From: a virus
Direction: 5' to 3' (one strand)
DNA: 64,000 bases
IMG/VR virus record: IMGVR_UViG_3300025150_000006
Location: 32,001 to 96,000 of that record
Position numbers and translations under genes: made by a program. The notes beneath the pieces are model-generated. The model saw only the letters and a list, made by a program, of their open reading frames with translations, did not search any database and was not told the DNA's origin. Each line of letters starts with the position of its first letter. The first letter of the stretch is position 1. This document shows positions 1,493 to 26,038 of the stretch, in pieces.

Positions 1493-4400
1493 TCAGGGAC
1501 CTTCCTCTCCTCCAGACCCCGCAAGAACCGCTTTCTCCATCTCCGAAAACTCTTCCGGGGTCATCTGCTCGATTCTTTTCCGCTCAGCCGGATCCGTGAC
1601 TCCTTCGAGAAAGTCCCTCTTGCGTTCCGCGAACGGGCGCTCGGGCCGAAGGGTCTTGTCCTCCGCCAGCTTAGGATCCGCTCCGGCTGCAATGGCCGTC
1701 ATCACTGCAACGGGGACGTCCTGCGGGTTGGGCTTCTCGTCCATCTCGGACAGAGCATCCACGATGCCCTGAGCCTGAGCCTGCTGGATCTTCTGAGAGC
1801 CGTCCTTCATGCAAACGGCAGCCTCTTCTCCGCTATCCAGGCACTTCTTCAAGAACTCGTCACAGGCTGCATTCATGTCTTCCCGGCTGGCATCTTCCAG
1901 ATCCTTGGCCACCTGGTCGTAGACCTCGGAGCTGTTGCTTGGATCCTTCTTCTGACGAGCGATGCTGGCCGCTACCCCCTGCACGGTCGTCATCGAGTTG
2001 ACACTCATGTCGAGGAGGAGAGACCTCAGGTATTTCTTCACGTCGTCGGACAGTTCACTGTTGCCCAGTGCATCTGCAAGGGACTGCCAGGGGGCATCCT
2101 TGGACATCGTGACCAGGTCCTCATCACTGAGCTTCCCCATAGCATCCCGCACAACTTCCCGGCCTTCCGCCTGGTACATCTGCGTGGGATCCTCCAGAAA
2201 CAGCATCTTGGCACTGTTCTGCTTGACCATTTGCTTGAACAGCACCTTGAGCTTGCTGTTCAGGGGCTCTCTCAGCAACTTCCCATTGGCCCACTTCACG
2301 TCGAAAGGCTCATCGTTGAGCACAGACGCAGCGTGCAGACCGTCGATGATGGAGTTCAACTCCTTGGCCTCTGGAGAGTCCGGAGTCATACCCTTGAGCT
2401 GCTGTACGGCGTTCTCAGCGATCTTGAGCCGGTGCTCCGGGGTCACCCTCCGGTAGAGCTTCATCGCCTGCTCTGCCCGAGACGCCAGAGCGTCACTGTC
2501 CATCGGTTCCGACGACAGAGGCTTCCCGCCCAAGTGACTGGGGTCGAGCAACAGGTGCTCCTGAGCCTTGGCCTGCACAAAGGCCCGTGCCACAGCTTCA
2601 GGACTTGATGTGTCCAGGTGCAGGAAAGGGTCCTTTCCCAGCTCCTGCATCATCTGAACCGTGACATTCTCATCCGCAAGCTCCTTGCGCAGGCCACGCA
2701 TCTCCACCTGGTAGGCCGCATAGAACTCAGGTGACTCCATCATCACCATCACCTGAAGGGCCATGTCCTCTGACAGGATGCCGTCCTTCTCAAGGGACGC
2801 TGCCAACGTCTCTGTCTCATTCTTAAACCGAGCCTTGTCCACCTTGGCCTGCTCGGCCTTCTGCTTCTTCTTGGCCTCCTCCGCCGCTGGGTCCGCCTTG
2901 CCATCCGCATCGGCAGTTCCCTTGGCGTAAGCTGTGGCCTGCTCCTTGGCCTTGTCATCCTCACCGAAAGTGTGGGTGACACCCTTAGGGTTCATTGCCA
3001 CCCAGACACCGGACTCTGCCTGCCAGACATCCCCCGCCTTGTGCTTGCCCTCTTCGGCAATCAGCCTACGCACCCATCGGGAACCCACCCGAGCCTCTTG
3101 TCCCTTCCACCAAGTCCCACGGGACTTGTCCCAGCCTCCCCGTGCTGTCTCGAAACTGAACTCCCGAATCGGGTACGTCACAGACTGGGCTGCAAAGTCC
3201 ATGTCCAACGAGACACGAGCGGCATGAGCGTGGGTGGTTGTCACCCCTCCGGCTGATTGGAACCACAAGGTCCCCTTCTTCCCGGTCTGGGGGTCCTTCA
3301 CCCGCCAACCCAAACCAATGTCGAGAACACGGTACTGGTGGCCCACCAAAGTCACCACAGCGTCAGACTTCTGAGCCCGCTTCTTATAGTTCTGGCTCAG
3401 GTCCTTGTCACCGTCCGCTCCGAAGCTCTCGATGTCAGGGTCATCCTCCCGCATCCTGTGTCGGCGGAGGTCATTCCGGGGAGGCTTCTTGCTTGGGTTC
3501 TTGTGATGCAGTTCCCGGACGTCCTCATCCTCTTTCTCGGCGTGGGTCTTCGTGCCCTCGACGAACCATCGGGCGGCAAGACGACGAGAAGGCTGAGTCA
3601 ATCCCTTGCAGTCCGGGCAGAGATTAGTCGTCTCAACCCGTGGACCCAAGCACCGACACTGGCTGACCGCCCCGCACTTGGGACAGATGTTCCGGTAGTG
3701 CTGCGGCTGTGACCCCTGCTTGTTGAGCCTCTCCTTGACGGTCCCGTCCCGCAGGAAGTTGTCCTCGATGCCAGGCACGAGATACTGGCTGCGCAGAGTG
3801 CTGGCCTCGTGGCCCACCTCAGCGGCGGCCTCGTCCAACGCCTGCTTGAACTCGGCCTTGAGTTTCTTCTGCCGTTCCTTCTTGTCGGTAGGAAGGGTGC
3901 CACCCTTGGAGCGGATGGCCTTGAGCTTGGTCTGCATCTCCCGGTTGGCGTGGAGCCCCCGGATGTCCTTGGCCGTGATGTCAAAGGACTTGAGGTACTC
4001 GTTGATGCCAGAGGCATCCGTCCCCTCGAACACTGAATCCGACCCCGACTTGCCCTCCAGCGCCTTCTCCAACCCGGCCACGAGTGCAGGGTCACTGGTG
4101 CTCTTGGTCTGCTTCACCCCGGACTTGCCCACGTAGGAGATGGTAGCCGTCGAGCCCTTGACGGTGACGTGCTTGGCCTGCCAACCGGTGACGCCGTAGT
4201 GACCGTCCTTGGCTGACGCCTCATTGCCAACGCGCTCGAAGGTGTCGTTCATCAAGCCGACGATCAATGCCTTGTGCCGGGTGGCCTCGTCTCCTGACTT
4301 GAGGTCCTTCTTGACCTGAGCCTGGAGCTTATGGAGCTTGCCACGGAGCTTCTCGATACGGTCAGCCTTGTCCCGGTGCCGGTTGGCGATCTGCTGATCA

Positions 4401-7400
4401 CTGTACTCGTAGACCGTCGTGGTGCCCTTGCCGTCAGCCTTGGGCACCTCCTTCTTGGACTTGAACTTCCCGGCTGCCAGCCTCCCTGAACCGGAGAGCA
4501 CGGGGAAAACCCGGTAGATCTCCTTGATGGCCTTCTTCCACTTGCCTGGTGCCTGTTCCCGCCAGACCTTCATTGGGACAAACACGTCCCCGTGAATCAC
4601 TGAGAGTAGGTAGGCCTTCTGCCTGCTCTCAGCGTCCTCACCCCGAAGATGCTTCTGGGCAGCCTGAATCATGTCCGTCAACTGCGGGTAGAACTCAACG
4701 TCATCCAGGAGATAGTTCTCGGCAAAAGTCTTGCTCTCATCGTAGAGCATCCGCTCTTGGCTGTGCCCCGGCGTCTGGATCCGTTGGGGAGGCAACCCAC
4801 CAGGGCTCCCGAGACTGGCCATGAGAGTCTGAGCAACGTGCTCCATCTCGTGACGGACTGTGTCCTCCAGTGCCTTCAAGGACTGCTTGAACTTGACCTT
4901 GATGTTGAGCGTCTTCGTCTTGGGGTCCCAACTGCCCAGGGAAGAGCCCGTTGCCCATCCCAGCACCACACGAAGGATCTTCCACTCCACGGGCAGCTTC
5001 TTGGGAAGTGCCGAGGCTGGTGACCAACCACTCAGGTCCATTGGGAACTTACGGACCAGAGGCCGTTTGCCTGCCAAGGGGGGTACACCAGGACGGAGAT
5101 AAGGCTTCAGCTCAGCCTCATCCCGTTTCGGGTATCCCATCAGGTCGGCGGCGACTGCGGCCTGCACCCATTCCGTGACGTCCGCCACCATGGCCGGGGG
5201 TGCCGTCCACAGCCCGGCGGTTTTCTGGGACGCATACCGAAGTGCCCGCACCCCTCCGTCGGAGTTGTGCTGGACTTGAGGCTTGTCCTCCCCGGCCTTC
5301 CAAGAGTACCACTGACGTCCCACACGGAACACGTAGCCTAGCACCCCACCACCGTAGTGGTCACCAGGGTCATCCTGAATCCCCTCGAACTCGGTCTGGC
5401 CCCAGGCGAACACAGCATAGGCCTCATCAGCCTTGCTGAACCACTTCTTCATCTGAGACGTGAATCGAGCGGTCTTGAGAAGTGAGACTGGGACCACGGT
5501 CTCGGTCTCCCCAGAGGCTGCCACGGCATCTGCAAACTGCTGGGTGAACAGCAGAGGCAGGGAGTTGACAGGCACGTTCTTCTCAATGCCATCCCCACCT
5601 GTGTCGAGCACGATCTTGTGCGTCACGGCCTGGATGTACCGATGAGCAACTCGGGTTGCCGCCTCCTTGTCCTGCTTGGCCTGAGCCTCATCGTAGCGGA
5701 CCTTGAACACTTGGACCTCTTTCTTGGCCCCCTGACCGGCATCGCCCTTGGGCTTCTTCCTCACGACGATGGTGGGGTCACCTTTCTCCGTCTCCCCGAA
5801 GCCTTCGATGCGACCAGGTGAATTGCGATATTTCCCGAGAAGGACTGGATCCCCAATATTGAGTTCAAACGTCTTTCCCGTCCGGGAAAAGATGCCCGTA
5901 CTCACGGAGTAGTTCTCTGGCCCAACGGATTTGATCTGAGACCCGTTGTCCACTGGGGTGATTCCGTCGCCAAAGTTCGAGGTTGTCGATCCGGTTGTCG
6001 ATCTTGTCCCCATTGATATGGTGGACGGTCTCCGTGCGCAGGAGTCTCCTACCGAGGAATTGCTCCATGACATAGCGATGTTCGAGGATTCTCCTGCCCT
6101 CGACATTGATGCTGCGGTATCCGTCTCGGTTGAGCCATCCCTCACCCTTGAGGGCTCGCTCTGCGGCCTCCGGGTCACCCTTTCGCTTCCAGAGATAGTA
6201 ATGGCGCTCGCAGTATCCCTTTGCATAGTGGTATTCGCCACAACCCTCGACGCCACACGTTCGATCGCGTCTGCGAATCCCCTCCAAGGAGCCCGTCCGC
6301 CTGAGCATGTTGTAGTGGGTGCGGCAGTAACTCCGAACTGCGGGCTTCTTTCCGCAACCATCAAAGGTGCAAGTGAGAGATGGAGGCAAGTCGCCCACCG
6401 GCTCTGGACGTTTCCCTTTTCGGTGTTGTTGGTAGTGCATTGTGCAGAAGCCCCTGGCTTCATGAGCCCGGCAGCATCCTGCCACTGAGCACTGGCGGTC
6501 GTGATGTCGTTCTGATCTTGGTCGTCCCATGACACCAATGTATCAGCACCCTGAATCTGCAACCTGTTCTTGTACTTGCCCATCAGGACCGGGTCCCCGA
6601 CGTTCAACTCGAAAATCTTGGCCGTCCTGCCTCCCTTGAGGTCATCACGGACTCGCTGGGTCAGCCGGCGGCCATCCGAGGCCAGAGCGGGATCATCCAA
6701 CAGGTGACGCCGTGCATAGTCCTGCACCTGCCGCACCGCTGCACCCTTGAGGTTGAACTCTGCCATCAGGGTCTTGGTGTCGAGCACCTTGCCCGGCTGG
6801 TTGAGCACCCGCACATACTGGTCAGAAGCAGCGTGAGACAGCCCTACCGTCACCTCACGCACACGAGCCATCTGATGAGCGTCGAGGAACGTGAGTCGCT
6901 TCCCACTCGGGAGACCCAGATCCATCAGGTCGAAAATGAAATCGACCTTCGCCTCACGATCCACCCAGTTCCCCAGGGAGTCACGGAACACCTTGTCCTT
7001 CTGAGCGATCTCCTTGATCACGTCGAGGAGCCCGAGCTTCTGCATCTCCAACAGAGCCCTCTTGCCCGTGGGCTCCTTCAAGAACGTGTTGATGAGCATC
7101 CCACTCAGATGAGCGGCAGGGATGTTGTGGAGCTTCGCCTTGTTCTTCTCGATGCTCTGCTTGACCTCGGGGGACAGCTTGAATCCGTACTTGATCAGGA
7201 ACTTGATGGCCCTGATCATCCGGCTCGGGTCGTCTGAGAACGTCTTATCCGGGCTGGACGGGCACCGCATCATCCCTTCTTGGAGGTCCTTCAGACCACA
7301 CCCAGAAAGGTCAAGAATCTCAGCCTTTTCCGGGCCTTCAGCCAGATCGTGCAGACGCCAGAGAAGGCAGTTGAACGTAAATTCACGACGACACACATCC

Positions 7401-7840
7401 TGCTCAATGGTCGCGGGTGTGACCTTGTCCGGGGTGTATCCCCCCTGGCCGTAACTCTCCGTCCGAGCATTCGCAATCTCGATGTCTTCACCACGCAGGT
7501 TGGCTTCCCCAAGCATCCAGTCACCGACGATGTGCATCAGAGCCACACCGTACTGGTTGGTCGTGATGTTCGTCTTCGCGGGGATCGCTCGGGCCACTTC
7601 CTTAGCGAACCACTCGGAGTCCTTGCCAGTAGCCACAGAGTCGATGACGACGTCGATGTCCTTCACAGGATACTTTTGCCCTGTAGGGTCCAGCACAAAG
7701 TTCCTTACTGCCCCTCCGACGACATAGACGTGCTTGCTCACACCCAGTCGCTTCGACAGGTCCGAGAGGAACTTCATCAGGGCCAGGCTGGCCTGATCGT
7801 CCATTGCAATGCGGGTTTGTTGAGCCACAGGCCACTCCAA
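1493..7840 (-). CDS. Multi-module polyprotein: CCA-type tRNA nucleotidyltransferase (~6630-7800), SH3/KOW-like module, HExxH zincin-like module, type IB topoisomerase (~3720-4470), Zn finger, helical C-terminal domain
   Basis: VYVVGGAVRN, KDIDVV, ARTESY, RREFTFN, DDPSRMIRA (class II nucleotidyltransferase); TVRHEMEH; RVGNE, GKSG, TAKDIR, VGH, RSQY (Topo IB R-K-R-H-Y pentad); CPKC..CRC..CPDC. True start may be GTG 7828 after GGAG. Confidence 0.85.
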   Translation of the reverse strand: MEWPVAQQTRIAMDDQASLALMKFLSDLSKRLGVSKHVYVVGGAVRNFVLDPTGQKYPVKDIDVVIDSVATGKDSEWFAKEVARAIPAKTNITTNQYGVALMHIVGDWMLGEANLRGEDIEIANARTESYGQGGYTPDKVTPATIEQDVCRREFTFNCLLWRLHDLAEGPEKAEILDLSGCGLKDLQEGMMRCPSSPDKTFSDDPSRMIRAIKFLIKYGFKLSPEVKQSIEKNKAKLHNIPAAHLSGMLINTFLKEPTGKRALLEMQKLGLLDVIKEIAQKDKVFRDSLGNWVDREAKVDFIFDLMDLGLPSGKRLTFLDAHQMARVREVTVGLSHAASDQYVRVLNQPGKVLDTKTLMAEFNLKGAAVRQVQDYARRHLLDDPALASDGRRLTQRVRDDLKGGRTAKIFELNVGDPVLMGKYKNRLQIQGADTLVSWDDQDQNDITTASAQWQDAAGLMKPGASAQCTTNNTEKGNVQSRWATCLHLSLAPLMVAERSPQFGVTAAPTTTCSGGRAPWRGFADAIERVASRVVANTTMQRDTASAITISGSERVTRRPQSEPSRVRDGSTETDTAASMSRAGESSNIAMSWSNSSVGDSCARRPSTISMGTRSTTGSTTSNFGDGITPVDNGSQIKSVGPENYSVSTGIFSRTGKTFELNIGDPVLLGKYRNSPGRIEGFGETEKGDPTIVVRKKPKGDAGQGAKKEVQVFKVRYDEAQAKQDKEAATRVAHRYIQAVTHKIVLDTGGDGIEKNVPVNSLPLLFTQQFADAVAASGETETVVPVSLLKTARFTSQMKKWFSKADEAYAVFAWGQTEFEGIQDDPGDHYGGGVLGYVFRVGRQWYSWKAGEDKPQVQHNSDGGVRALRYASQKTAGLWTAPPAMVADVTEWVQAAVAADLMGYPKRDEAELKPYLRPGVPPLAGKRPLVRKFPMDLSGWSPASALPKKLPVEWKILRVVLGWATGSSLGSWDPKTKTLNIKVKFKQSLKALEDTVRHEMEHVAQTLMASLGSPGGLPPQRIQTPGHSQERMLYDESKTFAENYLLDDVEFYPQLTDMIQAAQKHLRGEDAESRQKAYLLSVIHGDVFVPMKVWREQAPGKWKKAIKEIYRVFPVLSGSGRLAAGKFKSKKEVPKADGKGTTTVYEYSDQQIANRHRDKADRIEKLRGKLHKLQAQVKKDLKSGDEATRHKALIVGLMNDTFERVGNEASAKDGHYGVTGWQAKHVTVKGSTATISYVGKSGVKQTKSTSDPALVAGLEKALEGKSGSDSVFEGTDASGINEYLKSFDITAKDIRGLHANREMQTKLKAIRSKGGTLPTDKKERQKKLKAEFKQALDEAAAEVGHEASTLRSQYLVPGIEDNFLRDGTVKERLNKQGSQPQHYRNICPKCGAVSQCRCLGPRVETTNLCPDCKGLTQPSRRLAARWFVEGTKTHAEKEDEDVRELHHKNPSKKPPRNDLRRHRMREDDPDIESFGADGDKDLSQNYKKRAQKSDAVVTLVGHQYRVLDIGLGWRVKDPQTGKKGTLWFQSAGGVTTTHAHAARVSLDMDFAAQSVTYPIREFSFETARGGWDKSRGTWWKGQEARVGSRWVRRLIAEEGKHKAGDVWQAESGVWVAMNPKGVTHTFGEDDKAKEQATAYAKGTADADGKADPAAEEAKKKQKAEQAKVDKARFKNETETLAASLEKDGILSEDMALQVMVMMESPEFYAAYQVEMRGLRKELADENVTVQMMQELGKDPFLHLDTSSPEAVARAFVQAKAQEHLLLDPSHLGGKPLSSEPMDSDALASRAEQAMKLYRRVTPEHRLKIAENAVQQLKGMTPDSPEAKELNSIIDGLHAASVLNDEPFDVKWANGKLLREPLNSKLKVLFKQMVKQNSAKMLFLEDPTQMYQAEGREVVRDAMGKLSDEDLVTMSKDAPWQSLADALGNSELSDDVKKYLRSLLLDMSVNSMTTVQGVAASIARQKKDPSNSSEVYDQVAKDLEDASREDMNAACDEFLKKCLDSGEEAAVCMKDGSQKIQQAQAQGIVDALSEMDEKPNPQDVPVAVMTAIAAGADPKLAEDKTLRPERPFAERKRDFLEGVTDPAERKRIEQMTPEEFSEMEKAVLAGSGGEEGP
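5822..6565 (-). mobile_element. 744-bp in-frame HNH insertion carrying a recoded duplicate of 21 host codons
   Basis: RTAKIFELNVGDPVLMGKYKN (6566-6628) repeated as RTGKTFELNIGDPVLLGKYRN (5822-5884) exactly 744 nt away, with AT-richer codons in the second copy. Confidence 0.8.
5865..6530 (-). CDS. HNH homing endonuclease with three N-terminal CxxxxC...CxxHY Zn-finger repeats, nested out of frame in the polyprotein gene
   Basis: EHRYVMEQFLGR...VHHINGDKIDNRIDNLELW; repeats CSVAGC..CTMHY, CTFDGC..CRTHY, CGVEGC..CERHY. Confidence 0.9.
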   Translation of the reverse strand: MGRPRSERHHDRQCSVAGCCRAHEARGFCTMHYQQHRKGKRPEPVGDLPPSLTCTFDGCGKKPAVRSYCRTHYNMLRRTGSLEGIRRRDRTCGVEGCGEYHYAKGYCERHYYLWKRKGDPEAAERALKGEGWLNRDGYRSINVEGRRILEHRYVMEQFLGRRLLRTETVHHINGDKIDNRIDNLELWRRNHPSGQRVSDQIRWARELLREYGHLFPDGKDV

Positions 7841-7856: not shown

Positions 7857-8699
7857 TCAAGGGGACCTCATAGGCGAACAACCGCCTAGAACCTGAAAAG
7901 CACCCTCATCCTCCGAAACATCTTGCAGGCGGGATTCCGCCACACCCGTCCAGTGAGGATCACGGTCCACACCCCGGAAAGACATCCCCTCAAGAATTGC
8001 AGCTTCACCTGTAGTGCCAGACCCACAAAAAGGGTCTACGACCACCCCTCCAGGAGGGCACACCACCCGAACCAGTTGCCGCATCCAACCCACCGTTTTC
8101 TCGGCGGGATGGTCGTGCTTGTGTTTTGAGACTGGGAACCCCTCAAACAGGTGAGACAACCGAGGTTCCCCCACCTGCATGTACCCCACCCCCCATTGTT
8201 CGTGGTTAGCCTTCGAGGATTGCTGTGTCCCCGGCTTACGAGCCAGCACCCACAGTTCTGTTTCCTGTACAAGCTGGGTAGACAATCCACCATCGACCAA
8301 AGGGGATTTGGGCCTACGGCGATGCAGACGACGGATCAGGATGTCAATGGTAGGGAGACCTGCACGTTCCAGGCCCTCCATCAGCCAATGGAGGCTGGAC
8401 TGGAAACCCCAAAACACCCCATAGCCACCCGGCTTCAACACCCGGCTACATTGTTCAAGTACAGGATAAACCTGTTTCTCAAAACCAGGACGCATCGCCA
8501 AATGAGTCCGATGATGGGTTTGAAAATTGGCTCGTGTCCGGTTAGTGGGGGAATCCCAACCGAGGTAACGTGAATCCCCGCCCCCGAAAGGAACCATCAT
8601 ATTCCGACCAGAGGGCGGATCGGTAACAATGGCATCAGCACTGTTGTCTGGCCACGAACCCATCACATCAGCCGCATCCCCCAGACTCACATCATACAT
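7857..8699 (-). CDS. Beta-class N4-C/N6-A DNA methyltransferase
   Basis: IVTDPPS (motif IV-like), HPAEK, VVVDPFCGSGTT (motif I); start overlaps the upstream stop (TGATG). Confidence 0.8.
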   Translation of the reverse strand: MYDVSLGDAADVMGSWPDNSADAIVTDPPSGRNMMVPFGGGDSRYLGWDSPTNRTRANFQTHHRTHLAMRPGFEKQVYPVLEQCSRVLKPGGYGVFWGFQSSLHWLMEGLERAGLPTIDILIRRLHRRRPKSPLVDGGLSTQLVQETELWVLARKPGTQQSSKANHEQWGVGYMQVGEPRLSHLFEGFPVSKHKHDHPAEKTVGWMRQLVRVVCPPGGVVVDPFCGSGTTGEAAILEGMSFRGVDRDPHWTGVAESRLQDVSEDEGAFQVLGGCSPMRSP

Positions 8700-11198: not shown

Positions 11199-14100
11199 TC
11201 ATCGGCCTCCCCGACCACGAGACGTATTCCGACTGAGGGCCGAGCGCTGCCGATCTGGGCTAGAACCACCCAGCCGAGTCCGAGCTGATGCCTTGCGCAT
11301 CATCTTCGCCAGGTCCGTCGGGGTGGGGATGTTCCCACGGTGCCCCGGTCGGGTGTCTGTACCTGCAATATACTTTCGCTTACCGATGTGCTGGGTAGCC
11401 TCCCAGACCATTCGGACGAGGGCGTCTGAGTAGTCATCGTACTTGCCAGGTGCATTGGGGGCCTCGACCGTGATGATGTACTTCGAGTGCATCTCCGCCT
11501 GAAGTTCCATCATCTCCGCGATGTACTCTGCGTGCCACTCCCCACCCTCGGTCTCGACCTCGGGAGCGTCGAACAACAGCACCTTGCCCTCGTACATGAG
11601 GGTTTTGAAGTTGGCGAAGACCTGACTGGTGAGCTGCTTCGTGAAGAACACCGACTCACACTGGATCAAACCCTTGTTGTGCAGAGCCGTCTCGAACGGG
11701 ATACCGGCCCACTGATCAAACAAGCCCTTCTCGATATAGAACTTCCTCGACAACCCGTGGATCCACGCCGTGATGTCGTCGAACGACAAACGGGTCAGGT
11801 TCTTGTAGTTTCCTTCGCCCGCTCGGATGCGCTCAATGTGGTCGAGCACGATGTTGCTCTGGTAGTCGATATGGCCAATGGCAACCGCGCAGTAGTCACC
11901 ATCCACCAGACCCGCCGAGATGTCGATGCCCATGAAGTGGGGGGCTCGGGCCGGAGCCTTGAGTGCAGGGCTGTGACTGTCATCCACACAACGCAACAGA
12001 GCATTTGGCTCCAGCCAGCCCTTGGTACGGTTGGTGAAATCAGCCCCGAACTCGGTGAAGAAGCTGTCCTGGTCCGTCTCATACTCTTCTGCGAGGAACG
12101 AAGCCTCCACCGTTGGGTTGACTTCCCAGGTCGGTGCCTGGATACAGAGCATGTTCTGGGAAGCCAGGCCACCCATGAACCCCTGACGGTACTTCCGATA
12201 GAAGAACCCTTGCTTGCCCAGGGGGCTGGAGATGGACAGGATGCGGCCTTCGACCTTGCCTACTGCTCGACGACGGTTGTTCGGGTCCTTGGGGGAGAAA
12301 GCGGCCAGCGAGGGCTTGACAGCTCGGTAGATCTTGAGGGCGTCCGACTGCCCTGCATCGTTGAAGTGGGCAAGCTCGTCGAGGATGATGACGATGTTAC
12401 CAGCACCACGGAGACCCTTGGCGACACAGCTCTTGAAACTGACCTTGATGGTGGCCTTGGCCGTGGGGTCGTCGGAGTACCGACCGAATCGCTGAATGTC
12501 CTCTGGCGACTGGAACTTCGCGTAGGACATCGTGTTGTTGGCGGTGTAGGGCTTGTAGAAAGCACAGTTACCTGTGACAATGTTCCCCTCCAGGGTGAAC
12601 GTCCCATGCCCCTCCACCGTGGCACAAAACACCTCCTCCACCCGATCAGTCGCCTCAACCGACCGGACAGTCCAATACTTGTGGCGCTGCGCCTTCCCAC
12701 CCCCTGCGGAGAGGAAGTTCTCCCGGTGCTGCAGAATCACGAAAAAGGACTCATCCAGATGGCTCCGCTGGAGTGCAAGAGAAAACATCGTATGAGGCTG
12801 GCCCGTGAGGTTGGACACCCTATCTTCGCGGCGGATGGTGAACGTCCCAATCCCCAACACGGCGCACACGTCTCGGACAAACAGGAGGTTGGCCTCAACC
12901 GCACTGCTAATAATGACCTGACCACCCTTGGAGCAGGACCCGTCTGCGGCGAAGTAGCCCATCAGCCACCCCAACAGGTAGCTGTGGTTCTCCTCGATGG
13001 AGGGCAGTTCCCGGAAGAAGTTTGGCAAGGCTCCGAAGCGGGTGGCGTTGATGCCAGGCTGGTCCGTCGAGGGGCAAAGAGCAAAGTACGGCTGAAGGTG
13101 GGAGTCCTTCTCCCCCACCAAGTTCACCGACGTGGCGTGACGCTGACCCTTTGAGGTGCTGCCGTCTCCAAAGGTAAACCCATGGGCGACACCGAAGGGT
13201 GAACCCGTCACCTTGTTCTTGTAGCTCCGGCCGTACACCTGCTGAAGCCGGTGCTTGCCGGGCCGCAATTCCGTGGTCTTGAACTCCCTGTAGCCCTTGC
13301 CTCGGTGTGGCTTCCGCTGGTCCAACGTGAGCCAACGGTGATCCCCCGTGCAGTGAATGACCTTCTCGACTCCTTGCCGGGAAAGCACCAACCTGTAGAG
13401 GCGCTGCCTGCCGAAGGACCGCACCGGTGCTGCTACCCAGGCCCCCTTCCCCGTCAGTACCGTGGGGGTCGTACCCGCCAACTCACCAATGGGTTTGATG
13501 CCATCAGCGGTAATCACCTCGGTGTCCCGAGCGAAACAGTTCGAGAAGTGACCGCTGGCCTCGTTGTACAACAGCCCGGCCTGATCCTTGTCCGTTGCGA
13601 CCGAGATGAGCTGGATCACGTTCGTCTTGGGGATGCCGTAATAGAGCTGCGGGTTGTCCTTCAAGATGAGCTTGTAGACCTCGTAGGCCATCACGCAGGC
13701 ACAGATGAACGTATTGTGGCTAGTCATTCCATTGGCGACGAATGACTCCCCGTCGGGCACGTTCAGGTCAAACACCGGATTGACCCCTTCCTTGATGTCC
13801 TTCACGGGATCGAAGAAGTAGTCCAGATCCAACAGGTGCTCAAAGTGAGCGATGACCTCAGGGTCGGCCCCGAGCCCCCGAGCCACTGGCAGCACTTGCT
13901 CCAACCGGGGGTAGGTCATCTCGTCCAGGGCTGCCGGCTTGATCGTGTTGCCCAGTACCTCCCGTAGGGCCGACCGACTCCATGCTTTTTTCTGACCCGG
14001 ACGGGGATGCACAACGGGCACAGACTCTAAGAGACGCCGTGCCCAATCCCTCTGATGGGGGATTGACTCGGCATCCCCCCCTTCCTTCCCAGCGGCCTCC

Positions 14101-15545
14101 AAGGACTGGAGCAGGGGGTCCATTTTCTTCCTAGAATCAAACCCCACCCGCTCTGCGAAGCCCCTCCTGTGCCGAAGTCCACGGATGGTCAGAATCCAAT
14201 AGACATTGCCCTTGATGGTTTTGGGCTTGATCCGGCTAACGATGCCCAGATTGAGCAACAGCGTCTGAACTTCCCGAGCAAGACGCCCACTGGCAGTGCT
14301 GTAGGATACGATCTTGCCTCCAGACTCGACCCCGCCATCCGTCTCAAACAACCCACGCAAAAATGCCTGTACCACGGGACGAGGCGACTGAAGGATGGAC
14401 CAGGGCACCATCTTGGCATCCCGGTCCGTTCCCAACCTGAACCCCAAGTCGTGAAGGAACGCCCGCATCCCCACGCTGCCAAACTTGATGGCCCCGGTGT
14501 TTTCCGTGCGCTTGTCCATCACCACGGAGTAACCGCCCAACAAGCCGGTGTAGAGGGCTTTCAGGGTGTCCCACGTCTCGTCATGCTCGACGGTGACCTC
14601 GACTCGGCCCTTGTAGTTCCACAGACCATCCCCCACAAGGTAGCCCAGAAAGCGTCCCCAGTCCTCCGTCAACTTGTCTGGGAACTTCAACTCCCGGTAG
14701 CCCGCGGCATTGTGGAAAGGAGTGCAGTCAACGTACTCCGACGCCCACAGGTCAGTGTTCCGGTGGATGCACACCACGTCCCCGACTGCCAAATCCGCCA
14801 GATAACGCCAAGCCACCACACCTTGCTCAGTGAGCACCTTGATCCGGTGGTTGTCCGTCCCCCCTAGATGATAGCCACACCGGGTCGTCAGAGTTCGAGT
14901 TGCCTTCACCCCACCGTTGTAGAAATAGGCCGACCGGGACTTTTGAGCCCCCTCCTGAGCCACCCCCACTTCAAGGACTTGAACTTCAGGACCATCTGGG
15001 TCGCCCATTTCCTCGATGCGTCGGATGCCCCCATCCGTCAACACGAGACTGTCCCCGAGAATGCACTTGCCTGAACGACGACCGATGGAAAGCACCAGCT
15101 CTCGGCGCTCCTCCCCCGCGATGACCTCACTGATGTTGCTGCGACCCTCATTGAACAGGAACCGGAGATACTCAGCCTCCGTCATGTACCGAGGGTTCTC
15201 TCGCCGCCAGTCTGTGATCTTGACCCGGAACTTGTAGTACCCGGTCTCATCCTCCATCCCAGCCCCTTCAGCGACCACCTCTGCCTCGGAACCACCTTCA
15301 TCAGGGAGGAAAGCCTGCTCCTTGTAGGCCGGATGATCTGTGGGGATGGGCTTGTTGAGGTCGAACCCATAGGGGTTGTCGTCGAGAGGGATGCCGTAAT
15401 GGGCCTTCAAAATCACCCGCTGTACCGGGTACAACGGAATGTTGAGTCCCCAGGTGGACTCGACAAACGTGATGATGTCAACCGCCCGATAACCAGACTG
15501 CTGTTGCCTGCCGGCTTCGAGGGCGATGTCCGCCAGGCGACTCAT
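11199..15545 (-). CDS. terL: Terminase large subunit with two inteins (mature about 673 aa)
   Basis: Walker A GRRSGK|T, Walker B IIILDE, ISSP coupling motif, nuclease MGID and DDYSDA. Confidence 0.88.
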   Translation of the reverse strand: MSRLADIALEAGRQQQSGYRAVDIITFVESTWGLNIPLYPVQRVILKAHYGIPLDDNPYGFDLNKPIPTDHPAYKEQAFLPDEGGSEAEVVAEGAGMEDETGYYKFRVKITDWRRENPRYMTEAEYLRFLFNEGRSNISEVIAGEERRELVLSIGRRSGKCILGDSLVLTDGGIRRIEEMGDPDGPEVQVLEVGVAQEGAQKSRSAYFYNGGVKATRTLTTRCGYHLGGTDNHRIKVLTEQGVVAWRYLADLAVGDVVCIHRNTDLWASEYVDCTPFHNAAGYRELKFPDKLTEDWGRFLGYLVGDGLWNYKGRVEVTVEHDETWDTLKALYTGLLGGYSVVMDKRTENTGAIKFGSVGMRAFLHDLGFRLGTDRDAKMVPWSILQSPRPVVQAFLRGLFETDGGVESGGKIVSYSTASGRLAREVQTLLLNLGIVSRIKPKTIKGNVYWILTIRGLRHRRGFAERVGFDSRKKMDPLLQSLEAAGKEGGDAESIPHQRDWARRLLESVPVVHPRPGQKKAWSRSALREVLGNTIKPAALDEMTYPRLEQVLPVARGLGADPEVIAHFEHLLDLDYFFDPVKDIKEGVNPVFDLNVPDGESFVANGMTSHNTFICACVMAYEVYKLILKDNPQLYYGIPKTNVIQLISVATDKDQAGLLYNEASGHFSNCFARDTEVITADGIKPIGELAGTTPTVLTGKGAWVAAPVRSFGRQRLYRLVLSRQGVEKVIHCTGDHRWLTLDQRKPHRGKGYREFKTTELRPGKHRLQQVYGRSYKNKVTGSPFGVAHGFTFGDGSTSKGQRHATSVNLVGEKDSHLQPYFALCPSTDQPGINATRFGALPNFFRELPSIEENHSYLLGWLMGYFAADGSCSKGGQVIISSAVEANLLFVRDVCAVLGIGTFTIRREDRVSNLTGQPHTMFSLALQRSHLDESFFVILQHRENFLSAGGGKAQRHKYWTVRSVEATDRVEEVFCATVEGHGTFTLEGNIVTGNCAFYKPYTANNTMSYAKFQSPEDIQRFGRYSDDPTAKATIKVSFKSCVAKGLRGAGNIVIILDELAHFNDAGQSDALKIYRAVKPSLAAFSPKDPNNRRRAVGKVEGRILSISSPLGKQGFFYRKYRQGFMGGLASQNMLCIQAPTWEVNPTVEASFLAEEYETDQDSFFTEFGADFTNRTKGWLEPNALLRCVDDSHSPALKAPARAPHFMGIDISAGLVDGDYCAVAIGHIDYQSNIVLDHIERIRAGEGNYKNLTRLSFDDITAWIHGLSRKFYIEKGLFDQWAGIPFETALHNKGLIQCESVFFTKQLTSQVFANFKTLMYEGKVLLFDAPEVETEGGEWHAEYIAEMMELQAEMHSKYIITVEAPNAPGKYDDYSDALVRMVWEATQHIGKRKYIAGTDTRPGHRGNIPTPTDLAKMMRKASARTRLGGSSPDRQRSALSRNTSRGRGGR
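12567..13538 (-). mobile_element. Intein 2 of TerL (324 aa, LAGLIDADG; Cys1 plus W-C-T triplet; ends GN)
   Basis: FSN|CFARDT...TGDHRW...GYFAADG...VFCATV...IVTGN|CAF. Confidence 0.88.
13713..15065 (-). mobile_element. Intein 1 of TerL (451 aa, class 1, LAGLIDADG) in Walker A
   Basis: GK|CILGDS...GYLVGDG...FLRGLFETDG...FVANGMTSHN|T. Confidence 0.92.
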
Positions 15546-25729: not shown

Positions 25730-26038
25730 TCACCAGATTCCGGTCGTTTCGAAGCCACGCTTCTCAAACCACTGACCAAGGGCCATCAAGCCGTCGTGAT
25801 CCTTGGACCACAGCTCCAGGCCATCAAAACTGGAAGCGACACCGAGGTCCGCAACACGCGGAACACCCTTCATCGCGACCTTGCCGTCACGGAACGAGTA
25901 GAGCAGACTCGCCAAGTTACGGATTTCCTGTGCACCGTACAGCACACGAATCCGATACTCCGGGAACGAGACCTCACGGAGCCACCTTTCGGCGACCCGT
26001 TTCGTCATCAGCACCTGGTTTTTGGACTCATTCTTCAT
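25730..26038 (-). CDS. Small hypothetical late protein
   Basis: 102 aa; N-terminal KRVAERW; CCTAT motif upstream. Confidence 0.65.
   Translation of the reverse strand: MKNESKNQVLMTKRVAERWLREVSFPEYRIRVLYGAQEIRNLASLLYSFRDGKVAMKGVPRVADLGVASSFDGLELWSKDHDGLMALGQWFEKRGFETTGIW

Follow-up and report, generated by a model that had tools for sequence, protein, structure and literature searches.

A giant gene in the head module of a huge phage encodes a predicted nucleotidyltransferase, HExxH module and type IB topoisomerase in one chain and harbours a hidden homing endonuclease

Polyvalent proteins have been described as very large polypeptides that join unrelated enzymatic domains and are encoded among the virion genes of phages with a portal and a terminase (Iyer, Burroughs, Anand, de Souza and Aravind, 2017, PMC5512222). 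A 64,000-nucleotide stretch (the window) of IMG/VR virus record IMGVR_UViG_3300025150_000006 contains a giant gene that resembles them: a single open frame of 2115 codons encodes a nucleotidyltransferase domain, an HExxH module and a type IB topoisomerase (TopIB) in one polypeptide (Table 1), in a portal-terminase phage and among virion genes. Further points of likeness to the published polyvalent proteins are the HExxH module itself and, in relatives of the giant protein, the domains ART-PolyVal, 2H and GNAT and a shuffled order of modules. Unlike the proteins described there, the family has a TopIB as its constant module, and the N-terminal module of the window protein is of the class II tRNA nucleotidyltransferase type. 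The window protein is also without MuF, ArdC-N or SNF2-methylase modules, and its modules are introduced by a recurrent R-V-A-x-R-Y tag. In PMC5512222 the word 'topoisomerase' occurs once and 'CCA-adding' never, and the Pol-beta nucleotidyltransferases listed there are classed as protein-modifying. A second described system bears on the same gene. The ShiLan domain and the Pacc40 insertion are hidden HNH endonucleases that lie out of frame within DNA methylases of actinophages (Gosselin 2023, PMC9957025; Arsenault 2025, PMC11855218), and an insertion with the features of this type lies in the giant gene. Judging from gene position, domain architecture and analogy, we consider it likely that the giant protein is a multi-enzyme cargo from a huge-phage head module, which varies the theme of the polyvalent proteins and is probably borne in the virion.

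The open frame can start at TTG 7840, GTG 7828 or ATG 7804, and the GTG-start version of the protein (P0006, 2111 aa) is present on three contigs. The source record (G000) comprises 105,230 bases and was judged ~24% complete; the window is therefore a fragment of a huge phage. The stretch with the giant gene was identical in contigs of three aquifer DNA runs and differed by one base (C>T at 5747) in a hot-spring run. Since it was recovered from four public DNA runs, an assembly error as the origin of the long frame was rejected. None of the 23 runs listed with the stretch was an RNA run, and a search for promoters and terminators within the gene gave nothing beyond shuffled expectation. A preliminary description of this DNA had read the gene as one fused polyprotein next to portal and terminase, with intact-looking catalytic motifs in three enzyme modules. 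All of these motifs were present (GGAVRN, DxD, RRE, DDPSR, HEMEH and the TopIB pentad). The fusion stood in part: the frame is single, but aa 426-673 are a hidden homing-endonuclease insertion that the preliminary description had overlooked, and the chain is continuous only by read-through. Its overall interpretation was partly supported.

The TopIB module matched Pfam Topoisom_I (PF01028) at aa 1153-1348 with an E-value of 3.3e-25 (89.2 bits, cut-off 23.7). It was closest to the bacterial TopIB of Deinococcus radiodurans (2F4Q, 1.1e-12), and the variola enzyme (2H7F) was matched at 1.7e-4. The catalytic pentad was complete (R1203, K1239, R1294, H1344 and Y1353), as the preliminary description had also found, and its five residues were invariant in alignment A1, a full-length alignment of the window protein with its relatives P0002 and P0003. 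The partners of R1203, K1239, H1344 and Y1353 in 2F4Q are residues that we take to be R137, K174, N280 and Y289. R1294 was placed by its match AKDIRG to AKVFRT of Leishmania Topo I in the same search output, because HMMER offset that block in 2F4Q. The module was 60-75% identical in 14 relatives. Compared with the Deinococcus and poxvirus enzymes, it is likewise a compact enzyme with the same catalytic pentad; it differs in its fourth pentad residue, which is His in place of the Asn of the Deinococcus enzyme, and in lying inside a 2115-aa chain, in which a zinc ribbon and a basic motif follow it. To judge by these alignments, the module is an intact TopIB of the bacterial/poxvirus type, and its activity is predicted. 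Vaccinia virions contain the viral TopIB, which assists early transcription; the literature yielded no paper that links topoisomerase IB to phage virions.

The N-terminal module matched the Pfam PolyA_pol head (PF01743) at aa 38-192 (3.4e-13; 50.5 bits, cut-off 23), and PHROGs identified it as tRNA nucleotidyltransferase (phrog_2244, 2.8e-27). Its motifs were GGAVRN (42-47), D61-x-D63, RREFTFN (151-157) and, as the nucleotide-templating motif D, DDPSR (203-207); thus, the features by which the superfamily's head domain is recognized, GGxVR[DN] and the metal-binding carboxylates of DxD, were present. Motif B reads RRE, not RRD, and RRE was invariant in the relatives. By these sequence features the module is a member of the class II nucleotidyltransferase superfamily, the specificity of which is not readable from sequence. 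The preliminary description had called it a CCA-adding enzyme; the class II head and motifs uphold the superfamily, but membership of the CCA equivalog families did not follow, as the NCBIfam cut-offs were missed (TIGR02692, 82.3 bits vs 438.8; NF009814, 69.3 bits vs 290). Context argues for a role at the tRNA 3' end, because relatives carry 2H or cREC modules or, in LR745208.1, a motif of HAD type in front of the topoisomerase; in L004, a 536-kb phage contig, a 2H phosphoesterase that has its two HxT motifs stands before the CCA-type enzyme. The theme of RNA 3'-end healing, which the preliminary description had put forward as tRNA 3'-end repair, gains support from this co-occurrence or alternation of the CCA-type enzyme with 2H, cREC and HAD. 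For the CCA enzymes of jumbo phages, a part in RNA repair has been discussed (PMC7824862). Free-standing phage tRNA nucleotidyltransferases (phrog_2244; Bacillus phage G gp522 and mycobacteriophage Myrna gp28) belong to the same superfamily and share its motifs at 26-37% identity. They are separate genes outside the head module, whereas the window enzyme shares one chain with partners from the virion module, and its counterparts in relatives share theirs with 2H or cREC.

The HExxH module contains HEMEH at aa 997-1001 (H997, E998 and H1001). A full-library search with aa 860-1125 returned 260 representatives at E<=1e-3, many of them free-standing proteins of 250-450 aa. The H, E and H of the motif, together with E1049 located 48 residues downstream, were invariant in 37 homologues. 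An AF2 (AlphaFold 2) model of the module (predicted local distance difference test score, pLDDT, 90.6) consisted of one helix, three strands, the two helices that bear HExxH and the Glu, and a bundle of helices. HExxH on one helix and the third-ligand Glu on a later one is the arrangement of zincins, and both helices here are predicted; the topology is also that of the zincin core of polyvalent-protein metallopeptidases, as given in PMC5512222. Structural matches were weak. The best Foldseek match was anthrax lethal factor (E 0.076, probability 0.82), and VIA comparisons with the ChlB HExxH domain, IrrE, lethal factor and collagenase gave Z scores of 4.4-3.5; a wide VIA-align search with the model returned generic helical matches alone, with Z up to 5.6. 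When the family profile was compared with PDB sequences, it found chance OspA matches and projannalysin at E 0.11. Pfam gave no model for the module at E up to 10, and PHROGs gave phrog_34216 (unknown function) at 0.0012 and nothing else usable. We regard the module as probably zincin-like and its protease role as the weakest part of our interpretation. The zincin-like module of the preliminary description was thus retained for its invariant residues and predicted topology, with a weak fold match.

To define the protein family, the C-terminal 526 residues were used as a query, and 15 proteins on huge-phage contigs were obtained. These relatives (1184-2965 aa) share the C-terminal ~520 aa, and all but one contain PF01028. 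Their variable modules include PF01743, PF13563 (2H), PF20274 (cREC), PF18760 (ART-PolyVal), DUF5661, a weak GNAT and inteins, and the order of modules differs among them. ART-PolyVal is found in P0016 and 2H in P0003, P0010 and P0014, so that relatives carry domains specific to polyvalent proteins on the same backbone; no Pfam PolyVal model matched the window's own protein. The presence of ART-PolyVal on the shared backbone provides a direct link to the polyvalent-protein network, and together with 2H, cREC, the weak GNAT and the shuffling it supports the kinship to polyvalent proteins that had been suggested.

The tag has the consensus R-[VL]-A-x-[RK]-[YFW] and was counted with the pattern R-[VLI]-[AT]-x-[RK]-[YFW]. 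Nearly every relative contains it two to four times (~0.03 expected), always at the starts of modules. Among 149 homologues of the HExxH module it was counted 37 times, compared with an expected 2.2, and most of these copies lay no more than 14 residues from either terminus. In the 105-kb record it was found eight times on the coding strand (1.1 expected) and never in open reading frames (ORFs) of the other strand; three of these copies stand right after the initial Met, within 3-9 residues. Its placement at the termini of unrelated proteins and before successive modules of the polyprotein fits a sorting or cleavage signal, as far as its distribution can indicate.

The surroundings of the gene are those of a head module. 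On the coding strand the order is terminase large subunit, small ORFs, portal, N6/N4 DNA methylase, giant gene, a 253-aa and a 288-aa gene, head maturation protease (phrog_18299, 3.8e-13), EF-hand protein, a 212-aa gene and major head protein (phrog_2522, 2.2e-48). The reported adjacency to portal and terminase, which lie upstream, was thus borne out and extends to the prohead protease and the major head protein downstream. In L003, L004 and the published LR745208.1, the terminase, the portal, a homologue of the giant gene and the two downstream genes follow in the same order, without the methylase.

Taken as virion cargo, the chain, or fragments released from it by the prohead protease or the chain's HExxH module, would be loaded into the procapsid via the tag, the C-terminal backbone or both, and would leave the capsid together with the DNA. 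The topoisomerase would then relax the incoming genome, as the poxvirus virion topoisomerase does for early transcription, and the nucleotidyltransferase would rebuild damaged tRNA 3' ends, in relatives alongside 2H, cREC or HAD modules that remove cyclic phosphates. The roles in tRNA repair and DNA relaxation are plausible from the predicted enzymes. If the chain is encapsidated, the virion topoisomerase of poxviruses would have its first counterpart in a phage, and tRNA 3'-end repair could be delivered with the genome before phage gene expression, pre-empting tRNA-cleaving defences. The recurrent tag also gives experiments an entry to the question of how huge phages direct dozens of proteins to the head, and phage TopIBs of this family bear on the origin of the bacterial and poxvirus enzymes (PMC2647321).

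The insertion, which sits inside a small SH3-like domain that follows the nucleotidyltransferase, contains an HNH gene in another frame (PF13392, 1.4e-8; phrog_20891, 4.4e-23). In alignment A1 the insert (aa 426-652) has no counterpart in P0002 and P0003, and it had no BLAST match in the 15 relatives. The 21 codons before the insert are repeated after it, and a complete domain therefore follows the insert. The two copies are identical at 16 of 21 residues but at only 39 of 63 bases, copy 2 being recoded, and the TGA stop of the HNH gene falls within copy 2. Across the HNH gene the host frame runs for 222 codons without a stop; ribosomes starting at the CCA domain must therefore read through it and would make a Ser/Thr-rich linker of ~230 residues. 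In the corresponding frame of the window's real genes, stops occur at 0.027 per codon, and none of 9632 windows of that length was open. When the HNH gene was recoded with phage codon usage, the frame stayed open in 1.5% of the trials. Over 222 codons of that frame, most HNH homologues checked contained 2-12 stops; L009, the exception, contained none. These comparisons are evidence that the open host frame is selected and not accidental.

L009 (IMGVR_UViG_3300048599_000213, 312 kb), from another huge phage, contains an ORF (2804-4249, +, 481 aa) in which the same SH3-like domain is split by an HNH gene (3004-3495, 163 aa). The nuclease is 45% identical to that of the window; the host protein is different, and an RVAAR[YF] tag and a half-domain are duplicated on both sides. 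No in-frame ATG, GTG or TTG was seen in the host-frame codons just before copy 2 of L009, and the downstream part thus appears reachable by read-through only. In L082 (IMGVR_UViG_3300025858_000445), a DNA methylase ORF (2-2266, +) meets no stop on its way through two HNH genes (697-1185 and 1627-2043); both are offset by two bases, and duplicated methylase motifs stand on either side of each. Two further candidates were set aside: L088 has 70% G+C, so that chance is likely, and the host ORF of L156 is barely longer than its nuclease gene. An intron around the HNH gene, of group I or another type, is improbable as well: Rfam had no match between positions 5000 and 7500 (E up to 1), and with only ~40 nt before the ORF and none after it there is too little non-coding RNA. 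An intein is likewise improbable because the nuclease is in the other frame and the host-frame product has no intein match in Pfam. No empty-site joint was seen in the contigs of the four runs.

As in ShiLan and Pacc40, an intact HNH ORF lies in the other frame of a stop-free insertion and the site is empty in relatives; Rfam and Pfam gave no signature of an intron or intein in the window insertion. Unlike these, the host gene is a virion polyprotein and not a methylase, the domain cut is a small beta domain, and the element ends in a recoded duplicate of 21 upstream codons; PMC9957025 and PMC11855218 mention no duplication. By its layout, the insertion belongs with the hidden HNH elements of ShiLan type; its host gene is a new one for them, and a recoded replacement half-domain is added. 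The element has entered the SH3-like domain and brought or created the recoded copy of the 21 preceding codons. It shows that ShiLan-type elements are not limited to methylases and can mend a broken domain by carrying a recoded copy of it.

Several observations weigh against the interpretation of the giant protein as packaged cargo and against its parts. The case for packaging draws on gene position, the tag and analogy, and neither MuF nor any other known domain for incorporation into the head was found by Pfam and PHROG searches of the giant protein or by Foldseek searches with its C-terminal model. A recognizable fold relative of the C-terminal backbone is lacking, and the backbone is missing from the 508-aa homologue of LR745208.1; it is therefore not essential to the topoisomerase unit. 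The protein might instead be a late cytoplasmic multi-enzyme that is not packaged: its topoisomerase would ease torsion or untangle concatemers for the terminase-portal motor, its nucleotidyltransferase would mature or maintain tRNAs in late translation, and its place directly beside terminase and portal would reflect co-expression. This is unlikely in our estimate, since relatives carry effector modules typical of injected polyvalent proteins (ART-PolyVal and 2H), the tag is common to many unrelated small proteins, which suits a sorting signal over a packaging cofactor, and the slot after the portal is where, according to PMC5512222, head-internal proteins such as MuF/gp7 are encoded. The nucleotidyltransferase could have a function other than CCA repair. 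It might add poly(A) or other ribonucleotides to RNAs of the host or phage and so mark them for decay or stabilization, or its only substrates might be phage-encoded tRNAs without an encoded CCA. Its best PDB match was E. coli poly(A) polymerase (4.2e-16), followed by CCA-adding and A-adding enzymes; NCBIfam gave near-equal scores to the actinobacterial CCA model (82 bits) and to PcnB (74 bits), far below every curated equivalog cut-off, and RRD is replaced by RRE. We leave this alternative a modest chance, on the doubtful side, because a poly(A)-polymerase signature pattern had no match in the module, the PHROG families matched bear the name tRNA nucleotidyltransferase, and the fusions of relatives to 2H and cREC, both cyclic-phosphate end-healing domains, suit tRNA 3'-end repair. 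ARAGORN also found no tRNA genes in the window or in the 105-kb record, though this is just ~24% of the genome.

The HExxH module raises a similar question. Instead of a processing protease, it might be an oxygenase of the HExxH type, a structural module that binds metal, or an effector peptidase against host proteins and not against the polyprotein. The structural matches to zincins were weak (best Z 4.4), and the HExxH oxygenase domain 8s5f ranked alongside the peptidases IrrE, lethal factor and collagenase. P0015 is the only relative of the giant protein that shares the module; most relatives lack it, and it is therefore not a general processing enzyme of the family. These alternatives are nevertheless improbable given the invariance of H-E-x-x-H and of the Glu ~48 residues on, and the predicted topology, which agrees with the zincin core described in PMC5512222. 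As for the insertion, the gene of the window phage might simply be damaged, the HNH element having uncoupled or inactivated the N-terminal enzyme and the long frame being a recent, decaying accident. The insert does interrupt a folded domain, and the ~230 residues that it contributes are not protein-like in sequence. Moreover, the conservative within-gene shuffle of synonymous codons kept the frame open in 13.6% of the trials, and two of three other HNH genes gave modest open-frame figures (20% and 12%). We nevertheless hold damage to be very unlikely: the open-frame layout recurs independently in L009 and twice in L082, the recoded duplicate half-domain restores an intact domain, the insertion sequence was identical in the aquifer runs with one C>T in the hot-spring run, and in L009 read-through appears to be the sole route to the downstream part. 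A bolder extension of the cargo interpretation is conceivable and can be offered only tentatively. The tag could act as a cargo-loading peptide, as in encapsulins, that sends free proteins as well as each module into the procapsid, making heads programmable enzyme containers. TopIB would be their constant cargo, paralleling poxvirus cores and possibly representing the undiscovered viral TopIB group proposed by Forterre and Gadelle as the source of bacterial TopIB, and CCA enzyme, 2H, cREC and HAD would form a swappable set for RNA 3'-end healing.

Table 1. Features of the giant gene, with positions in the window and residues of the 2115-aa chain.
Feature	Window position	Strand	Residues	Remark
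Whole open frame	1493..7840	-		2115 codons
Predicted class II tRNA nucleotidyltransferase / poly(A) polymerase superfamily domain	6596..7804	-	aa 13-415	PF01743, phrog_2244, PDB matches
Copy 1 of duplicated segment	6566..6628	-	aa 405-425	Degenerate tag and first SH3-like strands; stump
Insert in host frame	5885..6565	-	aa 426-652	Ser/Thr/Ala-rich
Hidden HNH homing endonuclease gene	5865..6530	-		221 aa; shifted 2 bases from host frame
Copy 2 of duplicated segment	5822..5884	-	aa 653-673	Restores whole SH3-like domain
Small SH3-like domain (sequence pattern alone)	5681..5884	-	aa 653-720	Single, uninterrupted in all relatives
Tag RVAHRY at module start	5636..5653	-	aa 730-735	
AVFAWGQ...GGGVLGYVFR module, unknown function	5264..5635	-	roughly aa 736-859	Elsewhere in chain in relatives
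HExxH...E module, probably zincin-like	4466..5263 (HEMEH 4838-4852)	-	aa 860-1125	E1049
Predicted type IB topoisomerase	3716..4465	-	aa 1126-1375	PF01028, 2F4Q alignment
Cys-rich zinc-ribbon-like segment	3596..3703	-	aa 1380-1415	
Tag RLAARW	3566..3583	-	aa 1420-1425	
Conserved middle region	3071..3565	-	aa 1426-1590	KKPPRNDLRR...DLSxNYKK motif
Conserved C-terminal backbone	1496..3070	-	aa 1591-2115	Short beta unit, then all-helical domain

The remaining segments of the chain are conserved to different degrees. BLAST gave 45-79% identity of the SH3-like domain to 11 relatives, and the domain had no Pfam or PHROG match. The AVFxWGQ module, which stands before the HExxH module in the window protein, follows the zinc ribbon in L003. 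Six Cys of the zinc-ribbon-like segment were invariant in alignment A1, and P0002 gave a weak DZR match. A motif of the KKPPRNDLRR type follows the topoisomerase even in the 508-aa protein of LR745208.1. The C-terminal backbone was 41-52% identical to the 15 relatives, and its AF2 model (pLDDT 83.5) showed an all-helical domain. Foldseek searches with the C-terminal model against PDB and BFVD gave nothing below E 0.09; the C-terminal 735 aa had nothing usable in Pfam or PHROGs, and ESM Atlas gave no usable match to the C-terminal domain.

Homologues of the giant gene differ in size and in the elements that they carry. That of L004 encodes 1798 aa. In LR745208.1, a 485-kb uncultured phage, the gene after the portal (L167:6494-8020, +) encodes the 508-aa protein, which consists of a DxDxT domain (read as HAD-type by eye), the tag RNVAAKY, a topoisomerase IB and a KPPRDDLR motif. 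In P0010 (2803 aa) and P0012 (2965 aa), the CCA head domain is split by a LAGLIDADG intein, so that the same gene has repeatedly been hit by different selfish elements.

Insertions were also seen in the neighbouring genes. The large terminase subunit of the window (11199-15545, -) has 1448 aa, compared with 624 aa in L003; Pfam places a LAGLIDADG intein at its aa 168-611, and it has a second insertion of ~320 aa (aa 670-992), which is missing in L003, L004 and LR745208.1. The N6/N4 DNA methyltransferase gene (7857-8699, -) lies between the portal and the giant gene, and its start overlaps the portal stop; as L003, L004 and LR745208.1 lack it, it is a recent insertion into the head module. The EF-hand protein (L168:2657-4270, -; G000:C1:28656-30269) has 537 aa, occupies the scaffold position and matched EF-hand at 9.2e-9. 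Other proteins of the record that carry the tag in the form R-V-A-x-R-[YFW] are encoded at window positions 25999, 20518, 19612 and 55382 and at G000:C1:100775 and 18888; the one at G000:C1:100775 nearly repeats the TRVAHRYIQA of the polyprotein.

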